The notes: generated from the sequence alone by a model not told the origin. A stretch of DNA of 64,000 nucleotides from an uncultured bacterium (GCA_903934015.1 CAIZMI010000034.1:20378-84377); one strand, 5' to 3'; shown: positions 2,484-55,055, numbered from the stretch's first letter. Numbers and translations are program-made.

Positions 2484-2519
2484 TTCCCTTCTTTACCAAG
2501 GAAGGGTGTGGGTAGATTT
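2484..2519. repeat. CCCT..AGGG REP-like palindrome
   Basis: TTCCCTTCTTTACCAAGGAAGGGTGTGGGTAGATTT resembles 60572-60607 and 47067-47100. Confidence 0.55.
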
Positions 2520-2557
2520 TGTTGGTAATTTGTCATTATTGTGTTAAAAAATTAACA

Positions 2558-26747: not shown

Positions 26748-26790
26748 TTCTGTAAGTGAATAATTGACTGTGTACATCTTTTTAATATCA

Positions 26791-27732: not shown

Positions 27733-27791
27733 TGGTTATTATAGTATAGCGTATTAACAATTTAATAAAAAACCCGACACGTGCGCTTACG

Positions 27792-28873: not shown

Positions 28874-29454
28874 AATACTAACAATAAATAATTAATAAAC
28901 TGCGCACAACGATTATAGCAACCAGCTCGATAATATTCAACCCAACTGTATAAAAAAACACTTCACTTTTTGGATTGTTTAGCCGGATTTTACATTAACA
29001 AAAAAGTCGGCCCCTTCTGTATCCTTAAACGATTTCGTATCTTTTTTATTGATCATAAAAATCCTGCCAGTAGTACCTCCGGCAGGTTAAATGAAAAACT
29101 ATGTTCCTGTGCGAGAACGGTGAATCAAAGAACATAGCATTGATTGCGAAATCATTACGTTCCCTTGTTGCGCAAGAATTGCTTCCTCGCAAAAATTAGG
29201 CGTCTCCAATACATTCCTTTGTTGAAAACGTGAAGCATCCCAAGACGCGACTATGTAACATGTATGTTGCACCGGATTTGTCCATCCCCCAAAATCAGCA
29301 GAATGATCGGCAATAACAACGATTGTGTCGTTTTTGGAAATGCAACCCTTCGATTTATGGTGATGTCTCCGTTTATTGCTTAATTATTTGTGAAAAGTTC
29401 CAACCCGCTTTACATTATTAATATCTATGAAAAAAATGGGAAGTTAGTCAGACG

Positions 29455-30234
29455 ATGAAATTTTTCCTTTCAACCGGAATATTTTCAAAAATCTGCTCCC
29501 CCGACATTGCCGAAAAGATTGCATTAGATGCCGGTTATGACGGAATCGAACTTATGCTACCACCTCGTTATGTTTACCATCAAGAAGATACCGGCGATCT
29601 CTCTGCACTGCGCGCAACGACAATCATTCACTCAGCAAACGATTACTATGACGAATCACGATTTCACGCGGCATTAAGCGATGCGGTGAAAACAGCGCAT
29701 ACCATTAATTCCAAGCTGATCATCATTCATCCACCTTCCGCATATTTTAGTGGCCGTGAAAATATCCGCAGAGGCATCGCGCTCATTCAAAAATTACAAC
29801 AAGATACGGAACTGATAATTGCCTATGAAGTGCTCGGCATTTCATCACCAAAGACGCCAGACTCCTACCTCCACGGTTTAAAACAGCAAGGATACAAAAC
29901 ACCGCAAAAATGGGTAGATGATGTAAAACACTATAATTTAGCCGCAGTGCTCGACACCTCCCATGTGGCAAGTTGGGGAATCAATCCAACAACATTCCTT
30001 TCTCTTCTCGGTTCAAATGTCCGCCATATCCACCTTAGCGACTTCGACCCGAATACCAAAACAACCCATCTCCTGCCCGGTACGGGAAACATCAACTTAC
30101 CTGATTTCTTCCATACACTGCAGAAAGATTACCAGGACATTACTGTGACAATCGAAGTCAATCCAGTGAAGACGATGGCTGAAGGAGTAGAAATTGCAGA
30201 TAAATGTTTTACCTTCCTAAAAAAATATCAATAA
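29455..30234 (+). CDS. sugar phosphate isomerase/epimerase (xylose-isomerase-like TIM barrel)
   Basis: GYDGIEL, LDTSH, HIHLSD, HLLPGTG, TIE. Confidence 0.85.
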   Translation: MKFFLSTGIFSKICSPDIAEKIALDAGYDGIELMLPPRYVYHQEDTGDLSALRATTIIHSANDYYDESRFHAALSDAVKTAHTINSKLIIIHPPSAYFSGRENIRRGIALIQKLQQDTELIIAYEVLGISSPKTPDSYLHGLKQQGYKTPQKWVDDVKHYNLAAVLDTSHVASWGINPTTFLSLLGSNVRHIHLSDFDPNTKTTHLLPGTGNINLPDFFHTLQKDYQDITVTIEVNPVKTMAEGVEIADKCFTFLKKYQ

Positions 30235-30244
30235 TTCCAATGTT

Positions 30245-30937
30245 GTGCTAGACCACCCCGTAACCATTGGTGTCATGCAAAGAACATATCCTTTACACGC
30301 AAAAACACTGGAGGCGCTTCATCAGATTCCGAGCAATACGATTATTGTTGATTCAACACCGGGAAGACCGATTGTCAAGAAGAACGAAAAAATAAAGGTT
30401 ATACACACGCCGGACAAAAATGGTTTTTTTGCGATAGCTCTCCTTGTCCCATTATTTACAGAATTTCTCAATACGAAAAGCGAAAAACTATTTCTGATCG
30501 AAGGCGATCTTGTTCTATCGATGGAAAATATGATCCGCGCCGAACAATGCACGGTAAACACAAAAGTATTTTACGCCGAATCCGATCCAAAAAGTCGGCA
30601 CGCATACATTCGGAGAGAAGGGTTGGCTGGTGTCTTATTGCGCAATGAGTGCGAAAAAATACTTCACTGGATGATCTCTAAACCACCTTCAATATTTAGA
30701 AAATACCAGGGATATTGCGACACTTTTCTTTGGTATGCTGTTTCCAGCGAAACGACAGGATATTCAGCATCAACAAGCGGTCCAGACTGGATACCTGTTG
30801 TACACATGACACATGACGACTACACGCGGGTTACGAAAGTTCAGCGAAGAGATATGAAAGTATACCGCGCACGCATGGCAGAGATAATTCGTTTAGCCAT
30901 AGAATGCAATCAATTTACCTATCCAAAAAGTAACTAA
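30245..30937 (+). CDS. hypothetical protein (weak GT-A-like features)
   Basis: Long ORF co-oriented with the epimerase; IIVDS, LIEGD. Confidence 0.6.
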   Translation: MLDHPVTIGVMQRTYPLHAKTLEALHQIPSNTIIVDSTPGRPIVKKNEKIKVIHTPDKNGFFAIALLVPLFTEFLNTKSEKLFLIEGDLVLSMENMIRAEQCTVNTKVFYAESDPKSRHAYIRREGLAGVLLRNECEKILHWMISKPPSIFRKYQGYCDTFLWYAVSSETTGYSASTSGPDWIPVVHMTHDDYTRVTKVQRRDMKVYRARMAEIIRLAIECNQFTYPKSN

Positions 30938-30949
30938 AAGTATTTCCTG

Positions 30950-31028
30950 CCACCCGCACGAAAAACCGTTTGCCTTTTTGGATCACTTGGCCGCTTCCGA
31001 CTTTTTTGATTAATGAGTTTAACAACTT
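30950..31028 (-). repeat. displaced tyrS 3'-end copy 1
   Basis: Encodes VGSGQVIQKGKRFFVRVA versus tyrS VKTGNKIQKGKRFFVRVG. Confidence 0.88.
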
Positions 31029-31313
31029 ATACCACAACAATACTCACTGTTTCACCACTTCAATGAAATAATTAAAAAGCTCTATTACTCTCAGGAAAAG
31101 AGCTGTCGTTTCCCGCTTATTGCTTGCGTGATGAGGAAGCATAGTAAGAAAGTGACAACTCTCCAACAACAAGGAATTAATAAAGACACGATCAGTAACG
31201 CTAGTCGGAAACACTTCTAAGGGGTTTTCCCAAAAATTAAACTTCGTATCAATATTAAATATGAAATTTTTTTGAATATTTTCTCCAGACATATCAAATT
31301 TGTCCGCGTGAAT

Positions 31314-31878
31314 CAAACACCCCGCGGCAAGCCGCGGGGTATGACAGGAGGCATGGCCGTCATGTGAGGAGACGTAACTGCGCTGGGTTACCGCTCGTCT
31401 TTCCCTGGTTTTGGACGTATTGCTCAACCACCTTCCAATTACCCCGCTCGCCCACTGTGGCGAGATAAAAACCGTCACTCCAAAACTCTCCACCCCACAG
31501 ATCCTTCTTGAGCGCGGGAAATCGACGGAACAACTGTATTGCCGTGACGCTTTTGAAAATTCGGACCGCTTGTGAACCACTCATCTTTGGTGGAAAAGAG
31601 CAGAGCAGATGGATGTGATCACCGTCTGTACCTATTTTTTCAAACGTAATTTCGAAGCGTTCCGTGATTTCCCGCGCGATCTGCACAATGGCGAGCGGGA
31701 TTTCGTCAGTCAGTAAAGCTTTTCTGTATTTAACAGGAAAGACGAGGTGATAGTGAGAGGTATAGACATGATGATAACCATGAAGGACGGCCATGCGTTA
31801 ATTCTATACTGGAAACCAATGGTTTCCAGACCTTCCTTTACAAGGACCCCGCGGCAAGCCGCGGGGTAAGATAAAAAT
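31314..31878 (-). mobile_element. IS200/IS605-family element (tnpA only), ~565 bp
   Basis: Identical subterminal hairpins ACCCCGCGGCAAGCCGCGGGGT at 31319-31340 and 31846-31867. Confidence 0.9.
31360..31794 (-). CDS. tnpA: Y1 HUH transposase TnpA
   Basis: YHLVFPVKYR, DHIHLL, LWGGEFWSDGFY, YVQNQ. Confidence 0.95.
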   Translation of the reverse strand: MAVLHGYHHVYTSHYHLVFPVKYRKALLTDEIPLAIVQIAREITERFEITFEKIGTDGDHIHLLCSFPPKMSGSQAVRIFKSVTAIQLFRRFPALKKDLWGGEFWSDGFYLATVGERGNWKVVEQYVQNQGKTSGNPAQLRLLT

Positions 31879-32671
31879 ATAATCATATAATCCGTGAAAC
31901 GAATGAAGTAGCTTCCCAAGATCGTATTCAATCGGCATCCTGGTTGCGCCATTTGGATCCACAAACTTCACGGAATCACCATTAATCAATATGTTTCCGA
32001 AATGTAAATCACCATGGATAAATCCGACACTTTGCGGTACAAATTTTTCTAAATATCTTTCTTGAGAAATTTTTTCCATTATCAGCGGTACGCCCAAATA
32101 TTCACAGCCATTAATAACAACATTCTTTAGGGCTAGTAATTCTCTTAACCATAAGATGCATTTTGCCTCATTCATTCTAAGACTTATCTTTCGCCAATAT
32201 AATCGTTCAATTTCGACTGCACCCAGAGTGAAAATATTTTTCGAATTATACAGTTCAAACAATATTTCCACGCTCTTTGCCACGTATTTTTTCAAATCAT
32301 CAAAACCAATATTATTATCACAAAAGACGCTTCCGAGAGAACGAAACTGTTCCAAAAATTCCAGCTCATAAATCGCCAAATACTGATCATAAAAGCCACC
32401 ATGAAAACATGGGGCAACATTATTATTAGCACCCAAAGACCGGTACCATTCGATTTCTTTAGAGGTTGTATCCGGCAGATATCCACTCTCCGCTTTCATA
32501 ACCCTCAACCCAAAGCGACTTTTGAAAACAACCAAAAGCGCCTTTGTATTATCTTCTTCGATAAATTTTACGACTCTTTCGCCAAGTATCCTATTAAAAC
32601 TCAGTTTAAGTTCGTCTTTGGTTAAGTGTGTTTTGGTTGATTTCAGCGATTCAATGGCCTCACAGTAAACA

Positions 32672-33217
32672 TCAGACGTAGCCATAAAATTTGGCCGTAT
32701 GCCAAGCAATAAGCAGTGTCGGGTCCACAATGGCACCCCTCTTTAGTAAATCATCCAATTTTTCTTTTCTGACGATCCTTTCCTGTACCCTTTCCACGGA
32801 AGATGTTTGCCTCCCACTGACTTTTTCCATCTCATTCGAGAAAAAAATATGCAACATTCCATCAGATCTTCCCGGACGCATATAATAACTAACCAGTTTC
32901 TTAATTTTTTTGGGCTTATACCCCGTTTCTTCTATACATTCCCTGATTGCGGTTGCTTTGGGGCTTTCACCGGCATTTACCTTTCCTCCAGGAAGGTCAT
33001 AAATCCAAGAATCAATAGGAAATCTGTATTGATACGTCAAAAGCACGTCTCCCTCTTTCGGAACCAATAAAACCGCAGCTGCATCTTTTGAGCGATTTAC
33101 GGCATATTTTATTGTCTCCCCGTCGGGTAATTTCACAGTTTCCTCATAAAGGGGAAAGGGTTCGCCGTATATTGGCTGACTATGCACAATTTTCCATTTC
33201 TTGTTGATTGACTTCAT
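32672..33217 (-). CDS. Nudix hydrolase (ADP-ribose pyrophosphatase-like)
   Basis: QYRFP, LPGGKVNAGESPKATAIRECIEETG. Confidence 0.9.
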   Translation of the reverse strand: MKSINKKWKIVHSQPIYGEPFPLYEETVKLPDGETIKYAVNRSKDAAAVLLVPKEGDVLLTYQYRFPIDSWIYDLPGGKVNAGESPKATAIRECIEETGYKPKKIKKLVSYYMRPGRSDGMLHIFFSNEMEKVSGRQTSSVERVQERIVRKEKLDDLLKRGAIVDPTLLIAWHTAKFYGYV

Positions 33218-33311
33218 TTCAATGCTTGTTAATATACAATAATATTAAAGTTCGCTATCCGTAAACTATAGAACATTACACCAACTCCTTACAAGCATTA
33301 CTCAAAAGACC

Positions 33312-34421
33312 ATGCAAGAAAGTCTATCATTCAACTATAAGAAGAATTTCAATAAAGAGATTAAAATATACTTTTCGCAAGATAGTGCGAAAATTGTTGC
33401 TGACATATGTGGGTATTTAGGTACTGACCGAATTTTTATTGTTGCCGACAACGGCTTTAAAAACAACCACTCACACCGCCTTAAACAAAATCTATCAATT
33501 AAATTCCCCACTAAAGTACTAAATATAACCGCAAAAGAAATTAAGAAAAAATTATCCACCCTTCACAATTTGTCAGAAAAGATTATTGCCAATGGAGCGA
33601 CAAATAAATCAGTAATAATTTCGTTGGGCGGAGGACTGGTTGGAAATATCGCCGGCATGTTGGCGGGATTATTGTTTAGGGGCGTCCCGTTAATTCACAT
33701 ACCAACAACAGTTCTTTCGCAGGCGGATAGCGCAACGGACGTAAAACAGTCCGTCAATTGTGAAAACATAAAAAACGGGATGGGAATATATTATCCGCCT
33801 GTTGCCGTAATTATTGATGTGAATTTATTAAAAACACTCCCTGAACGCGAAGTCAGATCGGGTTTGGCGGAAATAATCAAGCATGCCCTGGCACAAGATG
33901 AAGATCTTCTTAGGTATTTATACAGAAAAGTCCCCACTCAAAAAATAAATGCGCCCACGCTTGAACGAATAATTGCCAGAACAATATCGCTCAAAATCGA
34001 ACACTGGAAAAACACGCCGGATATGTGGAGCGAGGAAGCAGTCAAAAAACCGGAAAGATTAACTCATCTTGGACACACGACGGGGAAAATTTTAGAGATT
34101 CTTCAACAAGATAAAATAACTCACGGCGAGGCAATCAGCCACGGAATGATAATCGAAGCCATCGCATCAAAAAAACTTGGAATTGGAAACGAGCAAATAA
34201 TTACCGAGATGAAAAAAGTATTTGGACGCTTTCAATTGCTTTATCCCCTCAAGAAAAACATTAATAGCTCTTCAGTTATTTATGGTCTTTATGGAAATAA
34301 AAACAAACAAAAAAATCCGATATTTGCTTTATTAAAAAATTTGGGTGTTCCAAAAACCGTTTCAACTTCAATAAATCCAGATATATTAAAAGAAGCACTG
34401 CTTGAATATGGAATCAAATAA
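33312..34421 (+). CDS. sugar-phosphate cyclase, 2-deoxy-scyllo-inosose synthase-like (DHQS superfamily)
   Basis: GGGLVGNIAG...FRG, PTTVLSQADS...KQSVN, GLAEIIKH, GHT, HGEAI. Confidence 0.75.
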   Translation: MQESLSFNYKKNFNKEIKIYFSQDSAKIVADICGYLGTDRIFIVADNGFKNNHSHRLKQNLSIKFPTKVLNITAKEIKKKLSTLHNLSEKIIANGATNKSVIISLGGGLVGNIAGMLAGLLFRGVPLIHIPTTVLSQADSATDVKQSVNCENIKNGMGIYYPPVAVIIDVNLLKTLPEREVRSGLAEIIKHALAQDEDLLRYLYRKVPTQKINAPTLERIIARTISLKIEHWKNTPDMWSEEAVKKPERLTHLGHTTGKILEILQQDKITHGEAISHGMIIEAIASKKLGIGNEQIITEMKKVFGRFQLLYPLKKNINSSSVIYGLYGNKNKQKNPIFALLKNLGVPKTVSTSINPDILKEALLEYGIK

Positions 34422-35190
34422 GAAAATAGTCATCTTATCAATACGCCGAAAACATTTTCCCAATACCACTCATATTGTTGAAAAACTGAAACGAGCAGGC
34501 GTGAATGTAATACACCCAAAAACGATAAGAGATTTTGAAAAAGCATGCAAAGTGATCAGTTCAAACGATATTATAATCACACTTTATTTTTCGAAAAATA
34601 ATAGCTTTAGAAAACAACTGGTAGCACTAGAAAAGAAGGGGTGCATGTTAATGGATCATCCCAACAAAATGCGGCTTACGGAAAACAGAAAGAAAACTAT
34701 GGAGTTATTGTCAAAGTCAAATATCAAGATTCCAAATTTCTATTTTGGACACCCTGACTGTATTCCAAATCATTTAGGAAATAAGCTGGTAATCAAACAT
34801 CCATTTGGACTTGCTATTGGTTTTATCGATACTAAGAGAGCTAGAGAAATTAACCAAAAGAACATTTACGTCGAAGAAATCCTTTTAAATCCCAAAAAAA
34901 CCGTCCGTTGTATCACTTACGTGTTTGGTATGGTGTTCACAAGAATCAAAAAGGACAAATTTGATATTGGTTTTGCCGATATACCGGGAACAGAGCCAAA
35001 AACGAGCACTTCGAAAAAAGATAGAATACTGGCGCAAAAGGTGCACAAACTTACCGGTATGGAATTATTCAACGTGGATTTAATCGACGAAGTTGTTATC
35101 GAGATAAATTGTTGTCCAAATTTTTTCTTGTACGACTCCATCGTCAAACATTTTGTTAAAAGAATTATAGAACTTTCGCAGAAACAATGA
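34408..35190 (+). CDS. ATP-grasp (RimK-like) protein
   Basis: LVIK, YVEE, FNVDLI..VIEINCCP. Confidence 0.7.
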   Translation: MESNKKIVILSIRRKHFPNTTHIVEKLKRAGVNVIHPKTIRDFEKACKVISSNDIIITLYFSKNNSFRKQLVALEKKGCMLMDHPNKMRLTENRKKTMELLSKSNIKIPNFYFGHPDCIPNHLGNKLVIKHPFGLAIGFIDTKRAREINQKNIYVEEILLNPKKTVRCITYVFGMVFTRIKKDKFDIGFADIPGTEPKTSTSKKDRILAQKVHKLTGMELFNVDLIDEVVIEINCCPNFFLYDSIVKHFVKRIIELSQKQ

Positions 35191-35993
35191 CGAACAATTA
35201 TGTAAATAACAAAAATGAAGTAAGGATGGTTTCAAAAGTAAGAAATAATTATTTCAGAAAATTTGTCGATTTTATTATCAAACAATCCTGCCTTAAAATG
35301 GATTCTGTCGTTGTTGACACCCCTTGTGGTACGGGAGAAATGACACAGTTATTGTTGAAAAAGGGGGTCGGAAAGAAATATTATCTTCTCGATATAAACC
35401 CATTTATGACAAAGGAGGCGCGAAATCGTTTACCGAAAAAATCAACCATTATTACCGGCGATGCCAACAATATTGCAAACTTTATTCCTGAAAGAGTCGA
35501 TACTATCTTTTGCTTAAACGGATTTCATATTTATCTATCCCGAAAGCGACAGTTTCTAAAGGGGTGTTACAAAATTCTAAGGCCCGGAGGAACTCTGATT
35601 TTTGACGTGTCAACAAAGGGATTAAACAATGAACAATCAAAAAGGTTTTTAGTGAAAGAAAACGCTGAAATGCGCATCCTATCCAGAAACAAATTTATTA
35701 AATATTGCGCGCTCAAATTGGCTAACCATAATACTTTGAAAAATTACCAAAACCTTCTCAGAGAAGCAGGCTTTTCAATTAAGACAGTAAAAATGTTTGA
35801 CACATGGAAAAGTGTCGATGAATTGGTGGATGAAACCACAAAAATACCTGGACGCCTACGCTCTCGACTATTGAACACCACAGATAAACAACGTGTGACA
35901 ATCTACAAGGAAGCCAACGAGGTTGCAAAGCAAGAAACCGGAATAAAACGCATCGAACACAACAGAATATTTTTTGTCGCAAAAAAACCATAG
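35187..35993 (+). CDS. class I SAM-dependent methyltransferase
   Basis: VVDTPCGTG, GDA, LRPGG. Confidence 0.85.
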   Translation: MTNNYVNNKNEVRMVSKVRNNYFRKFVDFIIKQSCLKMDSVVVDTPCGTGEMTQLLLKKGVGKKYYLLDINPFMTKEARNRLPKKSTIITGDANNIANFIPERVDTIFCLNGFHIYLSRKRQFLKGCYKILRPGGTLIFDVSTKGLNNEQSKRFLVKENAEMRILSRNKFIKYCALKLANHNTLKNYQNLLREAGFSIKTVKMFDTWKSVDELVDETTKIPGRLRSRLLNTTDKQRVTIYKEANEVAKQETGIKRIEHNRIFFVAKKP

Positions 35994-36022
35994 CACGGTG
36001 ATCAACACACTTTGTCTAAAAA

Positions 36023-36112
36023 TTATGTCTTGCCCCGCCCGCGCGAAAACCTTTTACCTTTTTGGATCACTTGGTCACTTCCGACTTTTTGGTCGATTGT
36101 TTTCGCGACTTC
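36023..36112 (-). repeat. displaced tyrS 3'-end copy 2
   Basis: Encodes EVAKTIDQKVGSDQVIQKGKRF, then a 1-nt deletion. Confidence 0.85.
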
Positions 36113-36270
36113 CCCACTCATTTTTTATCCAATTTGCCGGCATAAAAAACCGGAATCAGGGACTCCGGCGAAACCATGCCACCATTCTCCGTGACGTTCC
36201 AGAAGATATCCACAAAGACTACAGTGACGCCCAGTAGCTTTTTCTAAATCAAAATGTTATAAATATAAAC

Positions 36271-36669
36271 ATGAATAAGAAATTAGTGATTTGTGCAAGT
36301 GCTTCATTTGAAAATGAAATTGTGGATTGGAAAAACAAGTTAGAAAACAATGGTTATGAGGTAATAAAATACCCCACGAAAATTAATGATGATCTCGTTA
36401 ATAAATACAAAAAGGAGTTTTCTGAACACTACGAAGCTATTACACGGACAGATGTTCTCCTTGCACTTAATTTAGATAAAAAAGGAATACCTGGTTATAT
36501 CGGAGCTGGTGTCTTTGCGGAAATTGCTTTTGGCATCGGTCTGAATCGAGCACTAAAAAAGAATATAGAGATCTATTATCTAAACTCATTCCCCAAAGAC
36601 GCCTTTCCCTATTCGGATGAATTAAAACTTTGGCAGGAGTTGGGCTGGATAAAACAGTTCCGCCCATAA
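36271..36669 (+). CDS. hypothetical protein, nucleoside-deoxyribosyltransferase-like fold (tentative)
   Basis: ICAS.., D.LL.LN..K.GI.GYIG..VFAEI pattern. Confidence 0.6.
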   Translation: MNKKLVICASASFENEIVDWKNKLENNGYEVIKYPTKINDDLVNKYKKEFSEHYEAITRTDVLLALNLDKKGIPGYIGAGVFAEIAFGIGLNRALKKNIEIYYLNSFPKDAFPYSDELKLWQELGWIKQFRP

Positions 36670-36715
36670 ATAAAAACCGTACACGTTGTACGGCTGATAT
36701 TTTTTTGCGTCGATC

Positions 36716-38005
36716 TCACTGCCAATTTTCGACAAGGAATTGTTCTAGCACCCCGTAAGACCCTTCAAGTTGCGCAAAGTCTTCATCATCACCCCACCAG
36801 TGATAGTTGTTATGGTGGATATGGTATCTTTCCCAGCTAGACCCATTGTCGGGAATGTTGAGATTGAAAGCCTTCGCATTCCTGAAAACATACGAACCCG
36901 GTAATGGCACAAAGCGGAACAGGGATACCCTGTCAACCATCGGCGCAATATCTTTCAGGAGAGAAATTGTCTCATTTGTACTTTCCAGATTTTCACCGGG
37001 AAAGCCATGCACTAGAAAGATCTTGACCATCAAACCTACTGATATGGCAAGATTAACAGCTCTTCTGATTTGGTTAGTCGTCACATTCTTACCCATTGCC
37101 TGCAACATTCGTTCACTGCCGGATTCCACCCCAAATTTCAACTCAATACATCCCGCATCGTGCAAACACTCAAGCAGTTCATAATCAACCGTATCAACTC
37201 TGGAAAGCGCAGACCATTTCAGATTGAGACTTTCTACGGCTCTGCAGATTTCCCTCACCATCTTTTTGTTGATAATGAAGTTATCGTCAACTACCGCGAA
37301 GCCATCAATACCGTATCTGCGTTTGAGATGCTCGAGCTCCATTCTAACATTCTCGCCAGATCGACACTGAACCCTTTTTTGATAAACTGCGCAGAAATGA
37401 CAAGAAAATGGGCATCCTCGACTCATCATAATATGTGCCATTTTCATATCAGTATTTGCCAAACGATCATGCATAATTAAGTCCGACTCGTCGAGCAAAT
37501 GCCTCGCCGGAAAAGGAAGCCAATCTATCCCCTTTTCAAGAGAACGGCTTGCGGTCGTCTTTGGTGACTGATCGACCAAGTAGCCTACCCCTCTAATACT
37601 CGAAAAATCCCCAGTAGAATGTGCTCGTACGATTTCTACTAAGGTTTTTTCTCCGCTTCCTATCGCAACAACATCAGCCCGAAAATCCACAAGCGTTTCT
37701 TCTGGATAGAAACTGGCATGAACTCCACCAACCGCAATTGTAGTATTGGATGAATACATACCCCCAAACCTCGCCCTTTGGACAATCCCGTAAGTCGCCG
37801 AGGATGGGGTGCTAAACCCGACAACGTCATAACCCTGAAAATCACAACTATTTTCCCCCTCGTTAATCTTGAAGATTTTCACTTCAATATTATTTTCTTC
37901 AAGGAAAGCCGCGAGGTACAAAACACCAAACGGAGGAAATTCTTTTCTCTTTTCCTTAAAACGAGCAAGTTCGTAAACCTCTGGATAAACGAGAGCAACT
38001 CGCAT
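36716..38005 (-). CDS. B12-binding radical SAM protein
   Basis: PPFGVLYLAA, GGVHAS, SRGCPFSCHFC, GVESGS, GFPGE. Confidence 0.9.
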   Translation of the reverse strand: MRVALVYPEVYELARFKEKRKEFPPFGVLYLAAFLEENNIEVKIFKINEGENSCDFQGYDVVGFSTPSSATYGIVQRARFGGMYSSNTTIAVGGVHASFYPEETLVDFRADVVAIGSGEKTLVEIVRAHSTGDFSSIRGVGYLVDQSPKTTASRSLEKGIDWLPFPARHLLDESDLIMHDRLANTDMKMAHIMMSRGCPFSCHFCAVYQKRVQCRSGENVRMELEHLKRRYGIDGFAVVDDNFIINKKMVREICRAVESLNLKWSALSRVDTVDYELLECLHDAGCIELKFGVESGSERMLQAMGKNVTTNQIRRAVNLAISVGLMVKIFLVHGFPGENLESTNETISLLKDIAPMVDRVSLFRFVPLPGSYVFRNAKAFNLNIPDNGSSWERYHIHHNNYHWWGDDEDFAQLEGSYGVLEQFLVENWQ

Positions 38006-38174
38006 GTTAGACCCTTTCTACTTATTCAATTATTGAAAATGCAATCAGAGCCACAGAACTTGGCAACTTACAATATTATATGCGGATGATCAAGGCTTTC
38101 TACTTACAAGGTGTCAACGCTAAATGACAGAATATCAATCAGTTACCACCTCTCAGTTAATTGTTGGCACCTGA

Positions 38175-38591
38175 TCAGATTTTTTTCTTTTCGGAAAGCC
38201 ACCCAATCAACATCGTCTTTAAACTTTCCGGAAGTAATTTAACTTTATTCAACGACTTTATTTCAATAAACTCGAAACTTATGTGATTTTCCCTGCTCAC
38301 AATTTTTTCTGTACCAATTTCGACAACAAACACTAAATTTAATTCGTGATGTTTCGTTCCATTCTGTTTAAATATGTTTTCGACTACACCAACAGATTCT
38401 CCTAATTTCGCAACAGTTCCTAATTCTTCTCTAATTTCCCTTGCAAGCGCTTTTTGGGCCGACTCCCCAAATTCTATATGACCACCCGGTAAAAAACACC
38501 AGTCGGCCTCTTTGGCCTTGCACACTAACAATTTATCCCCCGAAACAATCACCGCGCGTACAATATTCTCGATAAAAAGATGGCTATCCAT
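38175..38591 (-). CDS. Nudix hydrolase
   Basis: LPGGHIEFGESAQKALAREIREELG. Confidence 0.9.
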   Translation of the reverse strand: MDSHLFIENIVRAVIVSGDKLLVCKAKEADWCFLPGGHIEFGESAQKALAREIREELGTVAKLGESVGVVENIFKQNGTKHHELNLVFVVEIGTEKIVSRENHISFEFIEIKSLNKVKLLPESLKTMLIGWLSEKKKI

Positions 38592-38702
38592 ATTTTATAC
38601 CCTAGCAGATATTAACATTCTTTTCACTCGAGGATTTTTACAAACTTGAGATATCACCCTCAAACTTGTAATGTACTAATACAAGCATTTTCATTAGATT
38701 AA

Positions 38703-39263
38703 ATGGCCACGAAATATACAAAAGACGAAAATGAAATAATTGAAAAAGCAATTCTTTTTCTTGTTACCGAATATGAAAAAACTGGATCCAATGAAAAACC
38801 GGTAATATTTCATAGTCTGCGCGTCGCTTGCAAGCTTGTGGAAGTTGGCGCATCAGCCACTATTGTTACCGCCGCCATTCTGCATGATTTAATTGAAGAC
38901 ACCAATGTTGATTTTGAGCGAATAAAAAATATTTTTGGCAGTGATGTCGCAAAGCTCGTCGACGCCGTTTCTTTTAAACCAAATATCGTTGACAAAGAAG
39001 AACGATATAAAGAAATGTTCGAAAGAACAAAAAATGCCGGAACAGATGCACTTAAAATCAAATGTGCAGATATTTTAGATAACAGTAGCTATTACTCATT
39101 CGGCCTTGACCAAGAACACGAAAAACGCTTGATAAACAAGCTAAAATATTTTTTGTTTATTGCAGAACCACAATTAGACGATTTTCCCCTCTTTCAATTA
39201 CTGAATGAACGTTATCAAACATTACTCACCCAATTTAATAACGACAATAAAAAGCCAATATAA
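38703..39263 (+). CDS. HD-domain protein, small alarmone hydrolase (RelA/SpoT HD, MESH1-like)
   Basis: P.I.HSL.VA, AAILHDLIEDT, IKCADILDN. Confidence 0.8.
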   Translation: MATKYTKDENEIIEKAILFLVTEYEKTGSNEKPVIFHSLRVACKLVEVGASATIVTAAILHDLIEDTNVDFERIKNIFGSDVAKLVDAVSFKPNIVDKEERYKEMFERTKNAGTDALKIKCADILDNSSYYSFGLDQEHEKRLINKLKYFLFIAEPQLDDFPLFQLLNERYQTLLTQFNNDNKKPI

Positions 39264-39299
39264 TGTTCACACGACTTATTTTTTTAACCACACATTAAT

Positions 39300-39622
39300 A
39301 TGAAATTTAAAGATTTAATCTCTAAAGCACTAGTGATCAGAGCTACGTATGGCGAGTATGAAGAAAAAACCTATGGCAAAAGGTGGACTAAAGAAAATAC
39401 CGCCGAGGACTTTGTTGGAGACGTGGGTGATTTAATGAATTTGGTGCTGGTCAAACAAGGAGTACGGCAAATAGAGGAGATTGATAAATAATCGCGCACG
39501 AATTATCTGATTGTTTATGGTCAATTATAGTTTTGGCTCAGTTCTATAATTTTGATTTGGAGTCCGCTTTTTTAACAAACATAGATGAATTAAAGTCTTT
39601 TATCGAAAATAAGATTAAATAA
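39300..39622 (+). pseudogene. MazG-like nucleotide pyrophosphohydrolase, frameshifted
   Basis: FVGDVGDL...; shifted continuation IAHELSDCLWSIIVLA after ~39490. Confidence 0.75.
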
Positions 39623-39637
39623 AAATAATTTTGTCAG

Positions 39638-40139
39638 TCACACAGAATGAGATTTCCGTAGCCCAATTGCGAGACTGCTGATACAAAGCGCGTGATCAAA
39701 CTTTCCACTGACAATCATTTTCCACAACTTGTCCTCATCAATGAAACTGCAATTTATTACTTCCGCAGGATCTTCTTTTGGTTGAGAAATCTTAACCGGG
39801 TTTTTGACGAGAAAAACAAACATCTTATTGCTCTGTCTGGCTGGATTTGGTGACACCGTACCAACAAAAGAAAAATCTCCCGTATAACCAGTCTCCTCTA
39901 ATAATTCCCTTTTCGCGGCTTCAAGCGGATTTTTGTCTTTTTCATCCACGGCACCGCATGGCAATTCATAGCTCACTTTGCCAATTCCGTGACGATACAT
40001 AATAAGGAGAGACTTTTGTTCCGTCACTGGTCACACAATCATCCGCACGCACCTTAATCCATCGATCAGATAATACATAACGAGACCGCAGCACTTTCCA
40101 AGGCTTAATAATCTTTTTAAAATTTTTGACTAATTTCAT
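39638..40139 (-). pseudogene. Nudix hydrolase with internal deletion/frameshift
   Basis: MKLVKNFKKIIKPWKVL..RADDC..PYYV in one frame, YRHG..ELPCG..AAKRELLEETG in another. Confidence 0.75.
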
Positions 40140-40374
40140 GAACTTTCCAGGTTAGTTATTATCATTCCCTTTATGAATCATCCACTGATTTAACCCTAAC
40201 CACTTTCTTATTTTATTTCAATAACCTCGCCCTATCGGTGGTAGATACGAGCATACAGATTGAATATTTTCATTCGATGTTATCACAAAACTTAACTTAT
40301 TAAGTATAAAATTATTTGTGATACTTTTAAAAGTGACTATTTACCAAAAACGGTAATGAACCTAAAGTATCAAT

Positions 40375-40995
40375 ATGCAAAGTCATAACCCTAATCCCGA
40401 CGATAAATTAATTTGGACGGAAATATCAAGAAAACAATTATTCGAGAAATTTTCTCGTGGCATTGATGATGTTGTCTTCAAATTTCCTGATAATCAAATA
40501 CACCATTATTTTATTAAAAATGAGCCGGACACGGTCTGCACACTGGCTTTTGATCAAAATAATCAGGTTATTTTGGCACAACAATTTCGACCCGGTCCAC
40601 AAAAGGTTCTTCTCACGCTCCCTGGAGGAGGCCTAGAGCCTGGTCATGATCCCATTTCAAGTGCCACAAGAGAACTAATGGAAGAGGTTGGTTACGAAAG
40701 CCATCTCAATCTCACTGCAACCTTTTTTGATGACGGGTACTCTACAAGCAGACGCTATTGTTTTTTAGCTGTAAATTGTACGAAAACAAATATCCAAAAA
40801 CTAGATCCGACAGAATTTATCAACACTGTTCAACTGCCCATTGATATCTTTATGGATGAACTCCGAAACGGAAGTATTACTGATCCGGAAGCAGCCTATG
40901 CTGCAATAGATTTTATTAATAAAAATGCGGATTCTCGGAAAGAATACAGCGACTTAAGTGAGTTGTTCAAAAAAACAATATATACGGCTTATTAA
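40375..40995 (+). CDS. Nudix hydrolase (ADP-ribose pyrophosphatase-like)
   Basis: QFRPGP, LPGGGLEPGHDPISSATRELMEEVG. Confidence 0.88.
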   Translation: MQSHNPNPDDKLIWTEISRKQLFEKFSRGIDDVVFKFPDNQIHHYFIKNEPDTVCTLAFDQNNQVILAQQFRPGPQKVLLTLPGGGLEPGHDPISSATRELMEEVGYESHLNLTATFFDDGYSTSRRYCFLAVNCTKTNIQKLDPTEFINTVQLPIDIFMDELRNGSITDPEAAYAAIDFINKNADSRKEYSDLSELFKKTIYTAY

Positions 40996-41383
40996 AAAAC
41001 CCTCCATGTTGAGAGGGCTTGTAATAATACAATTATCAGTTTTGAATCAATGGGGTGACACAAAAAGAAAAACAAAAAAGCGTGGTAAGCCTCATCAAGG
41101 GGTTGATAATAGAAGAAATTTTCCTTAAACAAGAGTAGTTTGTCTACCGTTATATCTAGTCCAATTTCCTCTTTGACCTCGCGCTTTAAAGCGTCCTCCA
41201 TTTTTTCTCCGACTTCCATCCCGCCCCGGGAAACCAAAGTTTACCATTACTTTTGTTTCGCATCGTTACAACCTTACCTTGCTCCAAAATAATACCGTAA
41301 ACGCTGGGTCGGAAATAAAACTTCTCGAGAGGAACATCCACCATTTCGTCAAAATTATTTTTGCAAGAAATAAATTTGTCCAT
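40992..41383 (-). pseudogene. Nudix hydrolase, frameshifted at the Nudix box and probably truncated
   Basis: FRPSVYG..LWFPG / GGMEVGEKMEDALKREVKEEIG in different frames. Confidence 0.78.
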
Positions 41384-41436
41384 TAGTCAACTATTTACAG
41401 AATGGTACCAAACGTGCGTTATTGCAACTGACACCA

Positions 41437-41682
41437 TTAGTTTCCCAAATGTCTCTGCAATAAAAATTTTGTCGTTAACTTTAATTTTCTATCAATGCGT
41501 AAATCATCCACGATTACTGCCAAATTTTGCCAATCTTCTTCTGTGAAATAACGCCACAACAGACGGTTGATGAAACGACTGTAATATTGACGTTCTTCCG
41601 CCGTGTTCCGCCATGGCTGTTTGCACAACATTCCGTCTCAGTTGGTCAGTGCCTCAATATCCGAGGGCGAATAATTCATCAT
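41437..41682 (-). pseudogene. decayed copy of the 43719-43961 gene
   Basis: Near-identical peptide; TGG->TGA at 41638-41640. Confidence 0.88.
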
Positions 41683-41810
41683 AAATATAGTTTATCATTA
41701 ACGCCCGTGATATTGTTAATCTTGGCTATGCACAATTAATATTTGCATGAATTTGACAACATAGGTCTCGTCCGTAACAGCCAAATTCGCGTTAATTTTA
41801 CTGTTTTGAA

Positions 41811-41865
41811 TTATGCTTTTACAAAAAACCGCTTGCCTTTTGGGATTATTTGGCCAAATTTTTAC
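41811..41865 (-). repeat. displaced tyrS 3'-end copy 3
   Basis: Encodes GQIIPKGKRFFVKA-stop. Confidence 0.8.
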
Positions 41866-41886
41866 ACAAAAAAAGATCGGCTATCA

Positions 41887-42444
41887 CTAACCGATCTCAC
41901 AACCTCTTGATCTAAGAAAACGCATTAACGCCTCACTCGCATGAAAAAAGGTCCCGTTATTGGCGATCTCGATGTCCGCCAGTGAAACAACTTCGGCCAT
42001 TCCCGCTTCCGTCTTAAATCGGTCAATGAGACGCATTTCTGCAATCGCCACATCCAATGAACAACTCAAGCGTCGTTGCATATTAGATTGCCGACGATCA
42101 ACTGAAGCATGAATCAAAACAGTTAGGCAATTTGCACCAGGAAATGCTTCCACTATCCCCTGTTTCAACCAGGGATCGTAGCAACCATCAATCACAACAC
42201 TTACGCCTTTCTCCAGCATTTGCTGAAGAATAACGAGTGTTTTTTTGCGTGCACATTGCACTAAATGATTAGTACCGGCTTTTTTCCACCAGTCTCTAAC
42301 ATGCTTTTCCCCAGCAAACACCGCCAGTTCGTGCAACAACGCTCGTTCCTTGATTATCTGCCAACGAGGATCGGCTTCAACCAGCGCCTTCGCGATAGTT
42401 GATTTTCCCGTCCCGCTCGGTCCAGTGAGCAAAAGAATGAACAT
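41887..42444 (-). CDS. P-loop nucleotide-kinase-like protein
   Basis: LTGPSGTGKST, VVIDG, ADIEIANNG. Confidence 0.8.
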   Translation of the reverse strand: MFILLLTGPSGTGKSTIAKALVEADPRWQIIKERALLHELAVFAGEKHVRDWWKKAGTNHLVQCARKKTLVILQQMLEKGVSVVIDGCYDPWLKQGIVEAFPGANCLTVLIHASVDRRQSNMQRRLSCSLDVAIAEMRLIDRFKTEAGMAEVVSLADIEIANNGTFFHASEALMRFLRSRGCEIG

Positions 42445-42871
42445 TTCTCTTTTCCCTCCAAAAATCCGCGACTATTTGTTTTGTGCCGACAATGGTTTTT
42501 AATTTTTTCAGCTCCTTATTACTTACCCACTTGTAGACTTTGTGTTCATCGCTAAGTTGCAAAATTCCATCGCAACCAACCAAAAAAACAATACGCACAA
42601 TCAAGTAGCTGATGCCGTTTGTTTTAGTCAAAATCTGCGTTACTGTCAATGGCTCACTTTTAACGACCACCAACCCCGTCTCCTCTTTGACCTCCCTCTC
42701 CATTGCCTCTCGCGCCACCTCCCGCACCTCCAATTTGCCTTCGGGAAGTTGCCACAAACCCCTGAAAGATTTGTGATTTATACTGCGTTTCAACATCAAA
42801 ATACGACTGTTTTTATCGACAATAATCGCTGAAGCAACTAATTTAATTTGCGTTAAATCAGGTATGTTCAT
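42377..42871 (-). CDS. Nudix hydrolase
   Basis: WQLPEGKLE..AMEREVKEETG, LSDEH. Confidence 0.88.
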   Translation of the reverse strand: MNIPDLTQIKLVASAIIVDKNSRILMLKRSINHKSFRGLWQLPEGKLEVREVAREAMEREVKEETGLVVVKSEPLTVTQILTKTNGISYLIVRIVFLVGCDGILQLSDEHKVYKWVSNKELKKLKTIVGTKQIVADFWREKRNVHSFAHWTERDGKINYREGAG

Positions 42872-43697
42872 TTTGTAATTTTTGCGCATAAGTTCGCATA
42901 CGTGCGACAACCTCTCTCACCTTTAACCAATTTTCATCCAAGTTTTTTTCTGCCAAATCCAAATGCAAAAATAATTGGCGAAATGATTCTTTGTAAGGTG
43001 CCCCTTCTAACAAAGGAAATGAACTGTAACCAACCTCGCGGTCTTCTTCAACCTCGCGAATATCATCGATCAGTTGCATGGCAACGCCATACCCATTAGC
43101 AAAACCCAAGGCTTTTTCTCTGACATCTTCACGCTCGGCCAAAGCGCACCCAAATAAAGCACCAATGGAATTAAACACACAAATATGTTCTATCCCCGGG
43201 CGATAATCACTAAAGTTTGTCGCTTTGTTTTCCCAAAGCAATGAAATATTCTTCCGCTGATAATAATGGTTCAAATTAATCTGCTGTAACAATATATCCA
43301 ACGCCTTCTTCTTATCCATTTCAATCAACATCCTTGTGCCTTCAATCGCCATAATATTCCCCGCAAAAACCAGGCACGACACTAAATCCCTTTCTTTGGG
43401 CATTTCGTCAACAATGTCATCGTGTGTCGAAATCGGTAGCATTGTCATCCCCAGCGCGATCAATGCCTTATCATCAACAGATTTTCCGGTTAAATCAAAA
43501 TGAAAAGCTTCACAAATGACCATCGGCGCCAAAGCGATTACTTTTTTCGGAAGAACAATAAACAATTTTTCTAAACCGGCATCAGGATATGATTTTACAA
43601 CTTCCGCAACTACCGGAATTAGCAACTCACGATAGCGCGTAACGTCGCCGTACAAATCTCCAACCAAACTTGATGTACCACCAACTTTTGATGACAT
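42858..43697 (-). CDS. class I isoprenoid synthase-fold protein
   Basis: HDDIVD and QLIDDIREVEED Asp-rich motifs. Confidence 0.75.
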   Translation of the reverse strand: MSSKVGGTSSLVGDLYGDVTRYRELLIPVVAEVVKSYPDAGLEKLFIVLPKKVIALAPMVICEAFHFDLTGKSVDDKALIALGMTMLPISTHDDIVDEMPKERDLVSCLVFAGNIMAIEGTRMLIEMDKKKALDILLQQINLNHYYQRKNISLLWENKATNFSDYRPGIEHICVFNSIGALFGCALAEREDVREKALGFANGYGVAMQLIDDIREVEEDREVGYSSFPLLEGAPYKESFRQLFLHLDLAEKNLDENWLKVREVVARMRTYAQKLQNEHT

Positions 43698-43718
43698 ATA
43701 ATTCCTTAATTATAACCC

Positions 43719-43961
43719 TTATTTCAAATGTCTTCGCAATAAAAATTTTGTGGTGAGTTTTAGTTTTCTGTCTATGCGCAAATCATCAACGATTTTTGCC
43801 AAATTTTGCCAATCTTCTTCTGTCAAATAACGCCACAACAGACGGTTGATGAAGCGACTGTAATATTGACGTTCTTCCGCTGTATTCCGCCATGGCTGTT
43901 TGCACAACATTCCGTCCCAGTTGGTTAACGCCTCAAGATCCGAAGATGAATAGTTCATCAT
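43719..43961 (-). CDS. small hypothetical protein, putative partner of the AbiEii gene
   Basis: ATGA overlap with the upstream gene; duplicated at 41437-41682. Confidence 0.75.
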   Translation of the reverse strand: MMNYSSSDLEALTNWDGMLCKQPWRNTAEERQYYSRFINRLLWRYLTEEDWQNLAKIVDDLRIDRKLKLTTKFLLRRHLK

Positions 43962-44629
43962 AAGGTCGTACTGTTAATTAATTTATCTATTTGTGCTGTA
44001 ACTAATTCAATATTTGTTATGCCGTCACGTAAAAACATCTCCGGCCTTAATTGAAACTGCTCCCTTTTCGCAACAAGCTCGCTTAATAATTTTTCTTCAC
44101 CAATCGTTCCCAAACGAAATTTCTTTTCTGCGATTTCAGCAAGATTACGAAGAGACCAATTTTGTTTTTTTGTAAGAAAGGCAATATCGATATAATCCTT
44201 AATTTCATCTCGCGAACAAAGCGCCGACGCTTTGCCGGCGGCCGCATCTTCCAAACTCGCCGTTGCCAATGTTCCAAACACTACAAAGCTCCCAATTTGG
44301 GAAATATTATCGTGTACCGCGTCAATCACCATTCCACTGGCCTTATCCATCCAACCGCGATCAGTATCGACAATTTGATCAACACCAAAAAGCTCTTGCG
44401 CCAAACGGTGCAACCGGATCATCCGTTGGTTAAATACAAGCGCATCAACTTCCGGATAAGTAAAAAAATCAAGATCATTTGATTGTCGCGGAACAATACC
44501 CAACGCTTTTAATAATGTGCCACCGGTCAAATAAAAAGTACGCGCCAGTTCAACATCGTCAGCCACGTTTTTAATCACCTCCAATTGCGGTTCAGTTAAA
44601 TCTTGCAACTCATCAATTGTTCTAATCAT
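43958..44629 (-). CDS. AbiEii/AbiGii-family nucleotidyltransferase
   Basis: FYLTGGT, R.S.DLDFF, K..A...R...KDYIDI. Confidence 0.85.
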   Translation of the reverse strand: MIRTIDELQDLTEPQLEVIKNVADDVELARTFYLTGGTLLKALGIVPRQSNDLDFFTYPEVDALVFNQRMIRLHRLAQELFGVDQIVDTDRGWMDKASGMVIDAVHDNISQIGSFVVFGTLATASLEDAAAGKASALCSRDEIKDYIDIAFLTKKQNWSLRNLAEIAEKKFRLGTIGEEKLLSELVAKREQFQLRPEMFLRDGITNIELVTAQIDKLINSTTL

Positions 44630-44692
44630 ATTTTAAGTTTAACCTATCGCCATACGTAAGTACAGAATAAACGCGCCTGCAAAAAAAGATAC

Positions 44693-45889
44693 TTATCCCA
44701 CCCGCACGAAAAATCGTTTGCCCTTTTGGATTTTATTACCTGTTTTAACTTTTTGTTCAATTGATTTTACAACTTCTTCGTCGATTTTAACCGCGCCCTG
44801 TTCAACCAATTGACGCGCTTTTGTTTTGCTCGTGGCGATTTTACTTTCTACTAACGCATCGACAATCGTCATGCCGGCAACTTTAGCTGTTGGCATTTCA
44901 TCTGGCGTTGTTTTCTTCTGAAAAACATTCACAAAGTAGTCTTGCGCTTCTTTAGCCGCCGCTTCCCCTGCATACATTTTTACCAACTCGGAAGCCAGGG
45001 CCATCTTGATATCGCGTGGATTCGTTTTACCGGCTTTTAATTCCTTGGCATATGTTTCCACCTGTTCCATCGGTAAACGTGTGCAATGCTCAAAATACGT
45101 GACAATTAGGCCATCTGGAACACTCATCACCTTCCCAAACATGTCGTTCGGCGCATCAGTGAGATTGATCGTGTTGCCCCAACTGGAGCTCATCTTGCGA
45201 CCGTCCGTACCCAATACCAAATTTGTCATCACGATGTCTTGCGATTCTTGTCCGTAGTGTTTTTGAATTTCTCTACCGGCCAACAAATTGAAACGTTGAT
45301 CCGTACCACCTAGTTCGACATCGGATTTCACCGCCACGCTGTCATAACCTTGCATCAAGGGATATAAAAGTTCGCGCAACGAAACACGACTTCCCTCTTT
45401 CAGGCGTTTGCTGATATTTTCACGCGCAATAAATTCGGCCAAGGAAAAATAATTAGCAAGCCGACCAATTTCCGCAAAACCCAATTTCTTAAGCCAAGAG
45501 GAATTATATTGCACTTCCGCTTTTTCAAGATCCAAAATTTTCCCGGCCTGTTCAACGTAGGTTTTCATGTTCTTGGCGATTTCTTGCTCCTCCAACATTT
45601 TCCGTTCGCTTTCCTTGTCGGAAGTATCACCAATTACGCCCGTAAAATCACCGACAATGAAAACTACTTGGTGTCCAAGCTTTTGGAAATCGCGCAATTT
45701 GAGCAGTGTTACTGAACGACCAATGTGAAGATTAGGGCTAGTCGGATCAATCCCCAATTTAACCCGCAGTTGTTTTCCCGATAACAACTGTTCTTCCAGA
45801 TGTTTTTTATCGATAACCTCATTAACACCGCGTGTTAACAATTCACTAATGGCTTCTTTGTCGGTACTTAATTCCATAACATTCAGCAT
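44693..45889 (-). CDS. tyrS: tyrosyl-tRNA synthetase
   Basis: GIDPTSPNLHIGR, YPLMQGYD, GGTDQ, KMSSS, C-terminal S4 domain. Confidence 0.96.
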   Translation of the reverse strand: MLNVMELSTDKEAISELLTRGVNEVIDKKHLEEQLLSGKQLRVKLGIDPTSPNLHIGRSVTLLKLRDFQKLGHQVVFIVGDFTGVIGDTSDKESERKMLEEQEIAKNMKTYVEQAGKILDLEKAEVQYNSSWLKKLGFAEIGRLANYFSLAEFIARENISKRLKEGSRVSLRELLYPLMQGYDSVAVKSDVELGGTDQRFNLLAGREIQKHYGQESQDIVMTNLVLGTDGRKMSSSWGNTINLTDAPNDMFGKVMSVPDGLIVTYFEHCTRLPMEQVETYAKELKAGKTNPRDIKMALASELVKMYAGEAAAKEAQDYFVNVFQKKTTPDEMPTAKVAGMTIVDALVESKIATSKTKARQLVEQGAVKIDEEVVKSIEQKVKTGNKIQKGKRFFVRVG

Positions 45890-46249: not shown

Positions 46250-46628
46250 GGTTTTCCAGTAAATATTTCGCTTCCGTTAAAAATGGTTCCGCAAAAGAAT
46301 AAACGTGCGTCGCCACCTTCACATCATATGTATGTGATGTTTGATTTCGCGCTTTTCGATATTCAAACCATTGTTCGACATTTTTAACATATCCCCGTTC
46401 AAACGCAGTTCGTAAAATGTCGTTATATATCATTTGATCAACATTGTCGTTGTGCTTCATTTCCAAAACCCTTTTAATAAATTTTACCGCCAGTTCATGG
46501 GAATATTCAAAACGCTGAATCACGCCATCGCGGGATAATTCGTTTTCCGGTTCTTTTTTCGCGCGCAAAAGCCCTTCTTCAAGCTGTTTCAGAGCATTTT
46601 TAAGTGGAGTGAGATCCAGTACGTTCAT
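46233..46628 (-). CDS. HEPN / nucleotidyltransferase substrate-binding protein (HI0074-like)
   Basis: RDGVIQRFEY, RNQTSHTY (R-x4-H). Confidence 0.9.
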   Translation of the reverse strand: MNVLDLTPLKNALKQLEEGLLRAKKEPENELSRDGVIQRFEYSHELAVKFIKRVLEMKHNDNVDQMIYNDILRTAFERGYVKNVEQWFEYRKARNQTSHTYDVKVATHVYSFAEPFLTEAKYLLENLERSN

Positions 46629-46686
46629 AAAGTCAGTGTACAACCAATTGCGCCAATGTTCCAAATTCCATATCCTGAAGAGTACT

Positions 46687-47724: not shown

Positions 47725-47727
47725 AAA

Positions 47728-55051: not shown

Positions 55052-55055
55052 CTTC

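Follow-up and report, generated by a model that had tools for sequence, protein, structure and literature searches.

Displacement of a resident gene end by incoming DNA has been described at rhs loci, as C-terminal displacement (Jackson et al., 2009; PMC2935791), and at effector-immunity modules of the Vibrio cholerae type VI secretion system (T6SS), where the displacement is sequential and homology-facilitated illegitimate recombination (HFIR) was proposed (2017; PMC5361080). Additive flexible genomic islands are attributed to site-directed recombination at tRNA genes (PMC5217437), and comEC-dependent transformation was shown in Saccharibacteria (PMC10633639). The present analysis concerns an array behind an essential housekeeping gene, tyrS, in a 64,000-nucleotide (nt) stretch of bacterial DNA (the window; genome G000, contig C34, positions 20378-84377). 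G000 is a 1.34-Mb metagenome assembly of 64 contigs, 98% complete; the window DNA is present in lake-water metagenomes from two studies, and we infer that the host is a member of Patescibacteria. Four same-strand copies of the tyrS 3′ end (T1 to T4, numbered outward from live tyrS) partition a 16.5-kb cargo region (Table 1). We regard the array as real and as clearly illustrating a general kind of scar that gene gain leaves without an integrase; it follows a known displacement logic, and a mechanism is proposed for it below. A full-text literature search, assessed by titles and abstract starts and covering few subscription papers, returned no description of such arrays in Patescibacteria, whether behind tyrS or behind another housekeeping gene.

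Copies of the tyrS 3′ end

A hidden Markov model of the last 32 amino acids (aa) of TyrS was built from nine relatives, without the window sequence, and run on six frames of G000. The live tail, which ends in KIQKGKRFFVRVG before the stop codon, scored first (60 bits, E 8e-17), followed by T3, T2, T1 and T4; the next-best match below T4 reached 6.4 bits (E 4.1). When DNA was compared with the live tail alone, the scores of T2 (56) and T3 (74) exceeded those of 200 shuffles (maximum 38), and those of T1 (34) and T4 (36) did not. An earlier examination of the window (the sequence-only reading) had placed three copies on the tyrS strand, delimiting blocks of 2.8, 5.7 and 5.0 kb; these are T1, T2 and T3, and both positions and block sizes are correct. 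The fourth copy, which adds a 1.95-kb block, had been missed.

Codon differences from the live tail (synonymous/non-synonymous) were 5/4 for T1, 3/6 for T2 (one of the changes being an effect of the frameshift), 3/4 for T3 and 4/5 for T4 over 13 codons. The copies had been said to differ at synonymous sites, and such changes are present; about half of the changes are non-synonymous. The GSxQV variant is, as had been noticed, common to T2 and T3; its Q is common to T1, T2 and T3, and the TAA of T4 is one base from CAA. The starts of T2 and T3 lie within about two codons of each other, and similarity between the two beyond the tail was not significant (score 16, reached by about 6% of random cases). 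T1 and T4 share a 15-nt leader that is not tyrS sequence and has three occurrences in G000 (a post hoc observation; 0.25% of random 30-mers score equally). The copies fall into two border classes, although decay has made the borders of the older ones indistinct.

The TyrS proteins of living relatives contain most of the tail residues, which supports the earlier suggestion that the tails are probably pieces of former or foreign working tyrS alleles. In comparison with ten close TyrS proteins, residues unseen elsewhere numbered 1 of 14 in T1, 3 of 25 in T2, 3 of 25 in T3 and 6 of 17 in T4. The residues of the four copies occur piecemeal across nine relatives (P0002-P0010); GQII, KTIDQKV, SGQTIQK and FFARA are each present in P0003, P0004 or P0007. 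T4 has 12 nt in common with the tyrS tail of the related locus L005; no instance of the T2/T3 DNA pattern turned up in 41 other genomes of the class. Judged by pairwise differences rather than a formal tree test, the 3′ parts of TyrS are mosaic within the genus: P0007 differs from P0005 at 28 of 260 positions in residues 10-270 and at 4 of 45 in residues 330-375, where it differs from window TyrS at 13, and P0002 shows the reverse pattern against window TyrS (24 differences in residues 10-270, 2 in 330-375). The swapped stretches are therefore longer than the dead tails. At residues ~275-295, TyrS proteins P0002, P0003 and P0006 carry differing in-frame insertions of ~12-24 residues at one site, possibly repeat-derived.

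The surroundings of tyrS were compared with those in two relatives, G003 and L005 (L-numbers denote individual loci); the assembly of G001, the only congener compared, contains neither tyrS nor its neighbour genes. The slot between tyrS and the fixed downstream genes is occupied by a single gene in G003; it amounts to about 7 kb in L005 and to 16.5 kb in the window. The L005 slot is filled by genes other than the window's (TyrS identity 81%), so that the downstream variability proposed for checking is borne out among the three. No tyrS tail copy was detectable in L005, the closest locus with DNA. Orthologues of a block-2 NUDIX gene (78-79%) lie at different positions near tyrS in L005 and G003, which suggests that the donors were the tyrS regions of relatives' chromosomes. 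Among 160 other tyrS loci, with flanks of mostly at most 10 kb and many shorter, a clear tail copy was found in one (L026, 1.4 kb downstream); matches at L040 (24 nt, bracketing core genes) and L015 were too weak to count as tyrS tails. A HEPN/MNT-type toxin-antitoxin pair (45920-46733) sits between the polyprenyl synthase gene and tyrS. Neither L005 nor G003 has it at this position, so that variation extends upstream of tyrS as well.

For the assembly check, Logan contigs from other samples were compared with the window; they include contigs of the sequencing runs X3 and X4, which are not flagged as possible sources. Single contigs span T1 (X1, X3, X4), T2 (X1, X3) and T3 (X3, X4) without differences, which excludes chimeric joins at these copies; T4 was unbridged among the contig pieces listed. 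The contigs break at a 239-bp duplicated open reading frame (ORF). A joint in X5 at 31334-31720 was rejected as likely derived from another organism's IS200, and a depth gradient in X1 (22.6, 18.9 and 15.4 away from tyrS, with 27.0-31.8 kb uncovered) was not used as evidence.

The four blocks hold two to eight genes each, on both strands, with six NUDIX genes or pseudogenes overall. The IS200 element of block 3 sits at the 3′ end of the APH-like kinase gene. Terminator-like hairpins were found at 41898-41873 (~8 nt before T1), 36169-36149 (~35 nt before T2) and 29086-29063 (~70 nt before T4); promoter-like sites were no commoner than in shuffles. The window had been described as free of recombinases. 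No site-specific recombinase was found in its 67 ORFs or in 33 of 42 computed gap frames (Pfam), and no window ORF matched PF00589; transposases are present, of IS200 type in block 3 and of IS3 type outside the blocks, as is an ORF with a LAGLIDADG domain (12581-13828), likewise outside. Elsewhere, G000 encodes one tyrosine recombinase, its sole PF00589 gene (C3), and three resolvase-domain genes of ~540 aa (C28, C43, C64), none of them on the tyrS contig. In block 3, the genes for the AroB-like cyclase, RimK-like ligase and methyltransferase form an operon (33312-35993), possibly for a small-molecule pathway.

Table 1. Features of the tyrS region and its surroundings in the window
Feature	Positions	Strand	Content and support
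tyrS, intact, 398 aa; anchor gene with live tail	44693..45889	-	TIGR00234, 337 bits over cut-off; Pfam tRNA-synt_1b, SYY_C, S4
T1	41811..41865	-	GQII(P)KGKRFFVKA, stop; profile E 5e-5, 22.1 bits
T2	about 36023..36112	-	EVAKTIDQKVGSDQVIQKGKRF, then 1-nt deletion; profile E 3e-10, 38.7 bits
T3	30950..31028	-	VVKLINQ, 1-nt insertion, KVGSGQVIQKGKRFFVRV; profile E 2e-10, 39.6 bits
T4	28937..28993	-	VKSG, stop codon, TIQKVKCFFIQLG, stop; profile E 0.011, 14.6 bits
Block 1 (2.8 kb)	41866..44692	-	AbiEii-family nucleotidyltransferase, 80-aa ORF, weak polyprenyl-synthase-like gene, NUDIX, AAA-type kinase; Pfam
Block 2 (5.7 kb)	36113..41810		NUDIX genes and pseudogenes, HD protein, MazG fragment, B12 radical SAM, 132-aa ORF; Pfam
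Block 3 (5.0 kb)	31029..36022		AroB-like cyclase, RimK-like ligase, methyltransferase (+); NUDIX, APH-like kinase (-); Pfam
Block 4 (1.95 kb)	28994..30949	+ (both ORFs)	TIM-barrel protein, 230-aa ORF; Pfam
Second copy of the block-1 80-aa ORF (43725-43963)	41446..41684	-	Stop-interrupted, 89%
Frameshifted NUDIX gene in block 2	40992..41382	-	78-79% orthologues near tyrS in L005, G003
IS200-type element	31314..31871	-	Y1_Tnp 31360-31794, between two 31-nt hairpin repeats
Downstream conserved genes	25661..28160	-	122-aa membrane ORF, LPG_synthase_C protein, 280-aa and 96-aa ORFs; in relatives, these form the far border of the variable slot
Upstream conserved genes	46609..48519		Polyprenyl synthase, nucleotidyltransferase; syntenic in L005, G003
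ComF-like gene	2519..3286	+	TIGR00201 E 6e-26, below curated cut-off

Similar gene-end copies behind other genes

Gene-end copies were scanned for behind 1102 ORFs in G000, 1058 in G001 and 1753 in relatives' loci. The same layout was found behind hppA, nrnA and rny in G000, behind rpsJ, the CCA-enzyme gene (cca), an ATP-synthase subunit gene and an HD gene in G001, and behind rnhB, rseP, leuS and murC in other loci, so that scars sit behind at least ten different genes. Names were assigned from Pfam, except leuS, murC and hsdM, which are presumed. The cargo comprises mostly 1-3 genes (0.14-6.7 kb), and the repeats begin 24-179 nt before the stop codon and finish at or just past it; the hsdM-like repeat is shortened by the ungapped measure used. 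At the upstream borders, where a shared crossover motif had been suggested as a check, the sole 5-mer common to 7 of 14 left junctions was AAAAA/TTTTT, an A/T run.

Codon differences between live and dead copies amounted to 59 synonymous and 13 non-synonymous in ten events, counted without the hsdM-like, HD, L026 and L040 events, and to 67:27 over all 14 events examined (0.22 expected for random change in either case). Individual events gave 14:0 (rpsJ), 4:0 (hppA), 4:0 (nrnA) and 3:0 (rny). At the empty site in G001, hppA runs directly into the sequence that follows the dead copy in G000, which indicates insertion without deletion. For polarity, five events offered 41 informative sites, and at 27 of these the dead copy was the one that agreed with the congener (p 0.03). 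This count leaves aside the ATP-synthase and hsdM-like events (orthologues 39% and 26%), loci without an outgroup and the HD event, whose orthologue carries its own scar.

Several further repeats were recorded in the scan. The rpsJ event (G001:C24 58792-66067; L193/L194) places 6.7 kb of radical-SAM and GH3-type genes between the gene and its displaced 179-nt tail, which differs only synonymously. Gene ends with nearby 88-120-nt copies at G000:C19 165-1297, C55 33181-35380 and C54 2193-8824 are presumably variable/template-like repeats of diversity-generating retroelements, and the tail matches on C19 and at C55:33181 were set aside as such; pilin and murA-like matches in G000 were set aside as what we take to be paralogues. 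The mirror image of the tail scars, in which a copy of a gene's 5′ end has been displaced to a place near or upstream of a gene, occurs at G000:C15 56925-59097, C22 58289-59399 and C63 3395-7447.

Three arrays of small accessory genes carry, at gene ends, a total of 11 co-oriented copies of a 30-nt motif: L166 (G000:C41; 476, 2191, 4250, 4850, 5507), L167 (C43; 4533, 5216, 5878, 6842) and G000:C18 (42616, 45351). The similarity continues downstream, no Rfam match was found at these sites, and the motif appears to be a cassette-like repeat independent of tyrS. L167 10304-10721 resembles a group I intron (RF00028, E 3e-8), with a score short of the gathering threshold. In the window, a 134-nt segment with imperfect palindromes (28249-28382) has a counterpart of 81% identity within the cargo of the ATP-synthase tail event (G001:C11:1330-1462). 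An X4 contig diverges from the window at 28379 and continues in DNA for which G000 gave no match. Two tandem EPSP-synthase-family paralogues, presumably murA-like, lie at 52613-56504; the L005 arrangement there is divergent.

Proposed route and its alternatives

We consider it an evenly balanced proposition that the four tyrS copies are scars of repeated one-sided, homology-anchored capture of relatives' DNA via natural transformation, a route that the sequence-only reading had named among its options and that we judge the most likely. Host homologous recombination anchored in the gene, and not a dedicated integrase, was probably responsible: the targets are many, the borders vary, the tails resemble alleles, TyrS is mosaic and the cargo is specific to the locus. 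Chromosomal DNA of a relative would enter the cell, likely by natural transformation, and recombine into tyrS on one side only by RecA-type anchoring; its far end would likely be rejoined within the last 15-30 codons of the resident tyrS by an illegitimate or microhomology join of the HFIR kind. tyrS would then gain the donor tail and cargo, the resident tail would be shifted downstream, and repeat events, in an order that can be proposed from the copies, would enlarge the slot. With the next shared gene 7-16 kb away, a second crossover on short DNA would not reach it, and the site would go on growing. Some tails may also have come inside donor DNA or acted as a far-side anchor.

The rny cargo ORF enters the dead tail in frame, as an illegitimate join inside the gene would give. 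Each of the six family genomes examined encodes ComEC and DprA (in G000, comEC and dprA lie on contig C44), and competence is predicted from these genes; the comF reported earlier in the window corresponds to the ComF-like gene of Table 1, its match lying below the curated cut-off. The push-down order first envisaged agrees with T4, farthest from tyrS, being the most decayed copy; the about equal freshness of T1, T2 and T3 and the rare leader common to T1 and T4 do not fit it. Because of that leader, some tails may have arrived already dead in donor DNA.

A number of observations weigh against one-sided capture. Neither a donor molecule nor a strain with fewer tails was seen. Logan contigs, which drop rare variants, gave no block-skipping, excision or empty-site joint in six runs at two loci, no excised-circle junction (an earlier suggested check) in those runs, and no empty-site joint at hppA and rny in four runs. 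Independent random joins do not predict the paired borders of T2 and T3 or the T1/T4 leader; cargo units mostly end in complete genes, with a hairpin before the tail in 3 of 4. When the HD event (7 live, 1 dead) is added, polarity falls to 28:21 and is no longer notable, and the live-live-dead-dead pattern of the hppA repeat is better fitted by a single crossover within the repeat. Raw numbers of genes with downstream tail copies show no excess over controls in G000 (7 against 4, 6 and 6); the corresponding counts are 5 against 7, 8 and 5 in G001 and 21 against 9, 16 and 7 in the loci. By direct flank alignment, 1 of 47 clean presence/absence indels between G000 and G001 carries a gene-end duplication, and HFIR is reported to be orders of magnitude rarer than ordinary recombination (PMC5361080).

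The paired borders, the hybrid hppA repeat and the complete cargo units fit a variant in which the dead tails are working parts, which we hold tentatively and think rather unlikely. A dead tail of 45-180 nt would anchor the far side on the recipient's live tail, so that a donor with live tail, cargo and dead tail would insert blocks additively behind essential genes. Host transformation and recombination machinery would suffice, and the result would be self-propagating, integrase-free cassettes over many core genes of Patescibacteria. The same borders and cargo units, together with the hppA pattern and the long identical stretches inside repeats (68 nt in rpsJ, about 110 nt in the ATP-synthase event), would also follow if a circle of tyrS tail plus cargo, excised between the live and dead tails of a donor, integrated by one RecA crossover within the tail; borders would be inherited and both copies would be hybrids. 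Such circles were proposed for rhs arrays, where they explain displacement without deletion (PMC2935791). Here we find them unlikely: the first scar is left unexplained; in nrnA it is the dead copy that agrees with the congener at the 5′-most sites, the wrong side for this model; the contigs of six runs contained no excision joint; and phage and plasmid records gave no blastn match to tail plus block 1. Short repeats (24-60 nt) at 75-93% identity, as found in several events, are poor RecA substrates, and the swapped TyrS segments exceed any dead tail in length; for these two reasons one-sided anchoring is preferred.

Integration by a site-specific enzyme is improbable, whether through a trans-acting integrase, an earlier suggestion, or through islands with an attP-borne tyrS tail that entered in tandem and whose integrases have since disappeared. 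A duplicated 3′ end is the classical signature of site-directed integration (PMC5217437), an attP tail would likewise differ synonymously, and G000 does encode a tyrosine recombinase and resolvase-domain genes. These all lie on other contigs than tyrS; neither the four blocks nor the scanned cargo ORFs elsewhere yielded a recombinase or a relic of one (several of those ORFs had no family, and the murC, hsdM-like and L040 inserts lay outside the scan); and scans of IMG/VR for an attP-like tyrS tail with two exact patterns gave no match. The scars, with one-gene inserts and lengths of 24-179 nt behind at least ten target genes, have no core or specific junction motif in common across 14 junctions, which tells against a trans-acting enzyme. 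For a free-standing homing endonuclease that brought its own replacement tail and drew cargo in through repeated cutting of tyrS, the LAGLIDADG-domain ORF would be a candidate. That ORF is 15 kb from T4, on the side away from tyrS; neither the blocks nor the cargo scanned in other events gave an endonuclease-domain match, and we think the idea highly improbable. An assembly chimera, or in-place duplications since decayed, is scarcely credible: a 64-contig metagenome assembly and contig breaks at the 239-bp repeat would allow it, the spanning contigs refute a chimera for T1 to T3, and allele-like residues and synonymous bias contradict neutral decay.

Relation to described systems

Patescibacteria have tiny genomes and few integrases and have kept competence genes. 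Scars of the tyrS type would be a readable record of gene gain at essential genes, giving the resident allele, the join position and a rough order. Essential genes could turn mosaic at their 3′ ends by hitch-hiking with cargo, which matters for marker-gene phylogeny. The reach of the finding is limited by the rarity of clean events, by the prior description of the same logic in toxin arrays and by a mechanism that is proposed rather than observed; it is directly testable because Saccharibacteria are transformable in the laboratory.

Integrons consist of IntI and palindromic attC sites between single-gene cassettes. Like them, the tyrS array strings together small accessory genes with short, mutually related sequences in between; it differs in having no IntI, in separators that are coding-sequence fragments and in multi-gene blocks in both orientations. 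No palindromic attC-type repeat was found as a separator (no attC covariance search was made), the separators being tyrS coding fragments, and the junctions share no specific motif. The array is not an integron, and the label integron-like given to it earlier does not apply in the strict sense. Additive and tRNA-anchored islands also form a strain-variable cassette stack at a fixed site, with duplicated 3′ ends (PMC5217437). At tyrS a duplicated 3′ end brackets the inserts, whereas the target is a protein gene, and neither an integrase or its relic nor a fixed crossover core was found.

HFIR is known from transformable Acinetobacter, Streptococcus and Pseudomonas, and in the laboratory it usually deletes recipient DNA. 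In HFIR, as proposed for tyrS, foreign DNA is anchored by homology on one side only, its other end being joined in without long homology, and the tyrS host has the competence machinery at the gene level (ComEC, DprA, ComF-like); tyrS-type scars, in contrast, are net insertions that keep and duplicate the gene end. T6SS modules have an upstream homologous anchor, ancestral material moved downstream and arrays formed via successive insertions (PMC5361080), all of which have counterparts here, whereas the tyrS array lacks toxin-immunity selection and scars occur behind many unrelated core genes of one genome.

At rhs loci, an intact gene is followed by co-oriented, variable-length dissociated 3′ fragments with intervening genes, no integrase is involved, and incoming tips displace resident ones within the limits of related alleles (PMC2935791). 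The same arrangement, an intact tyrS followed by co-oriented dissociated 3′ fragments of related alleles, was found here. The toxin core, variable toxic tips and immunity genes of polymorphic toxins were not: the anchor is an essential housekeeping gene, its tail is a conserved 45-90 nt instead of a variable toxin tip, and the gain is cargo behind the gene. By analogy, the tyrS array would work like C-terminal displacement of the rhs/T6SS type, at a housekeeping gene.

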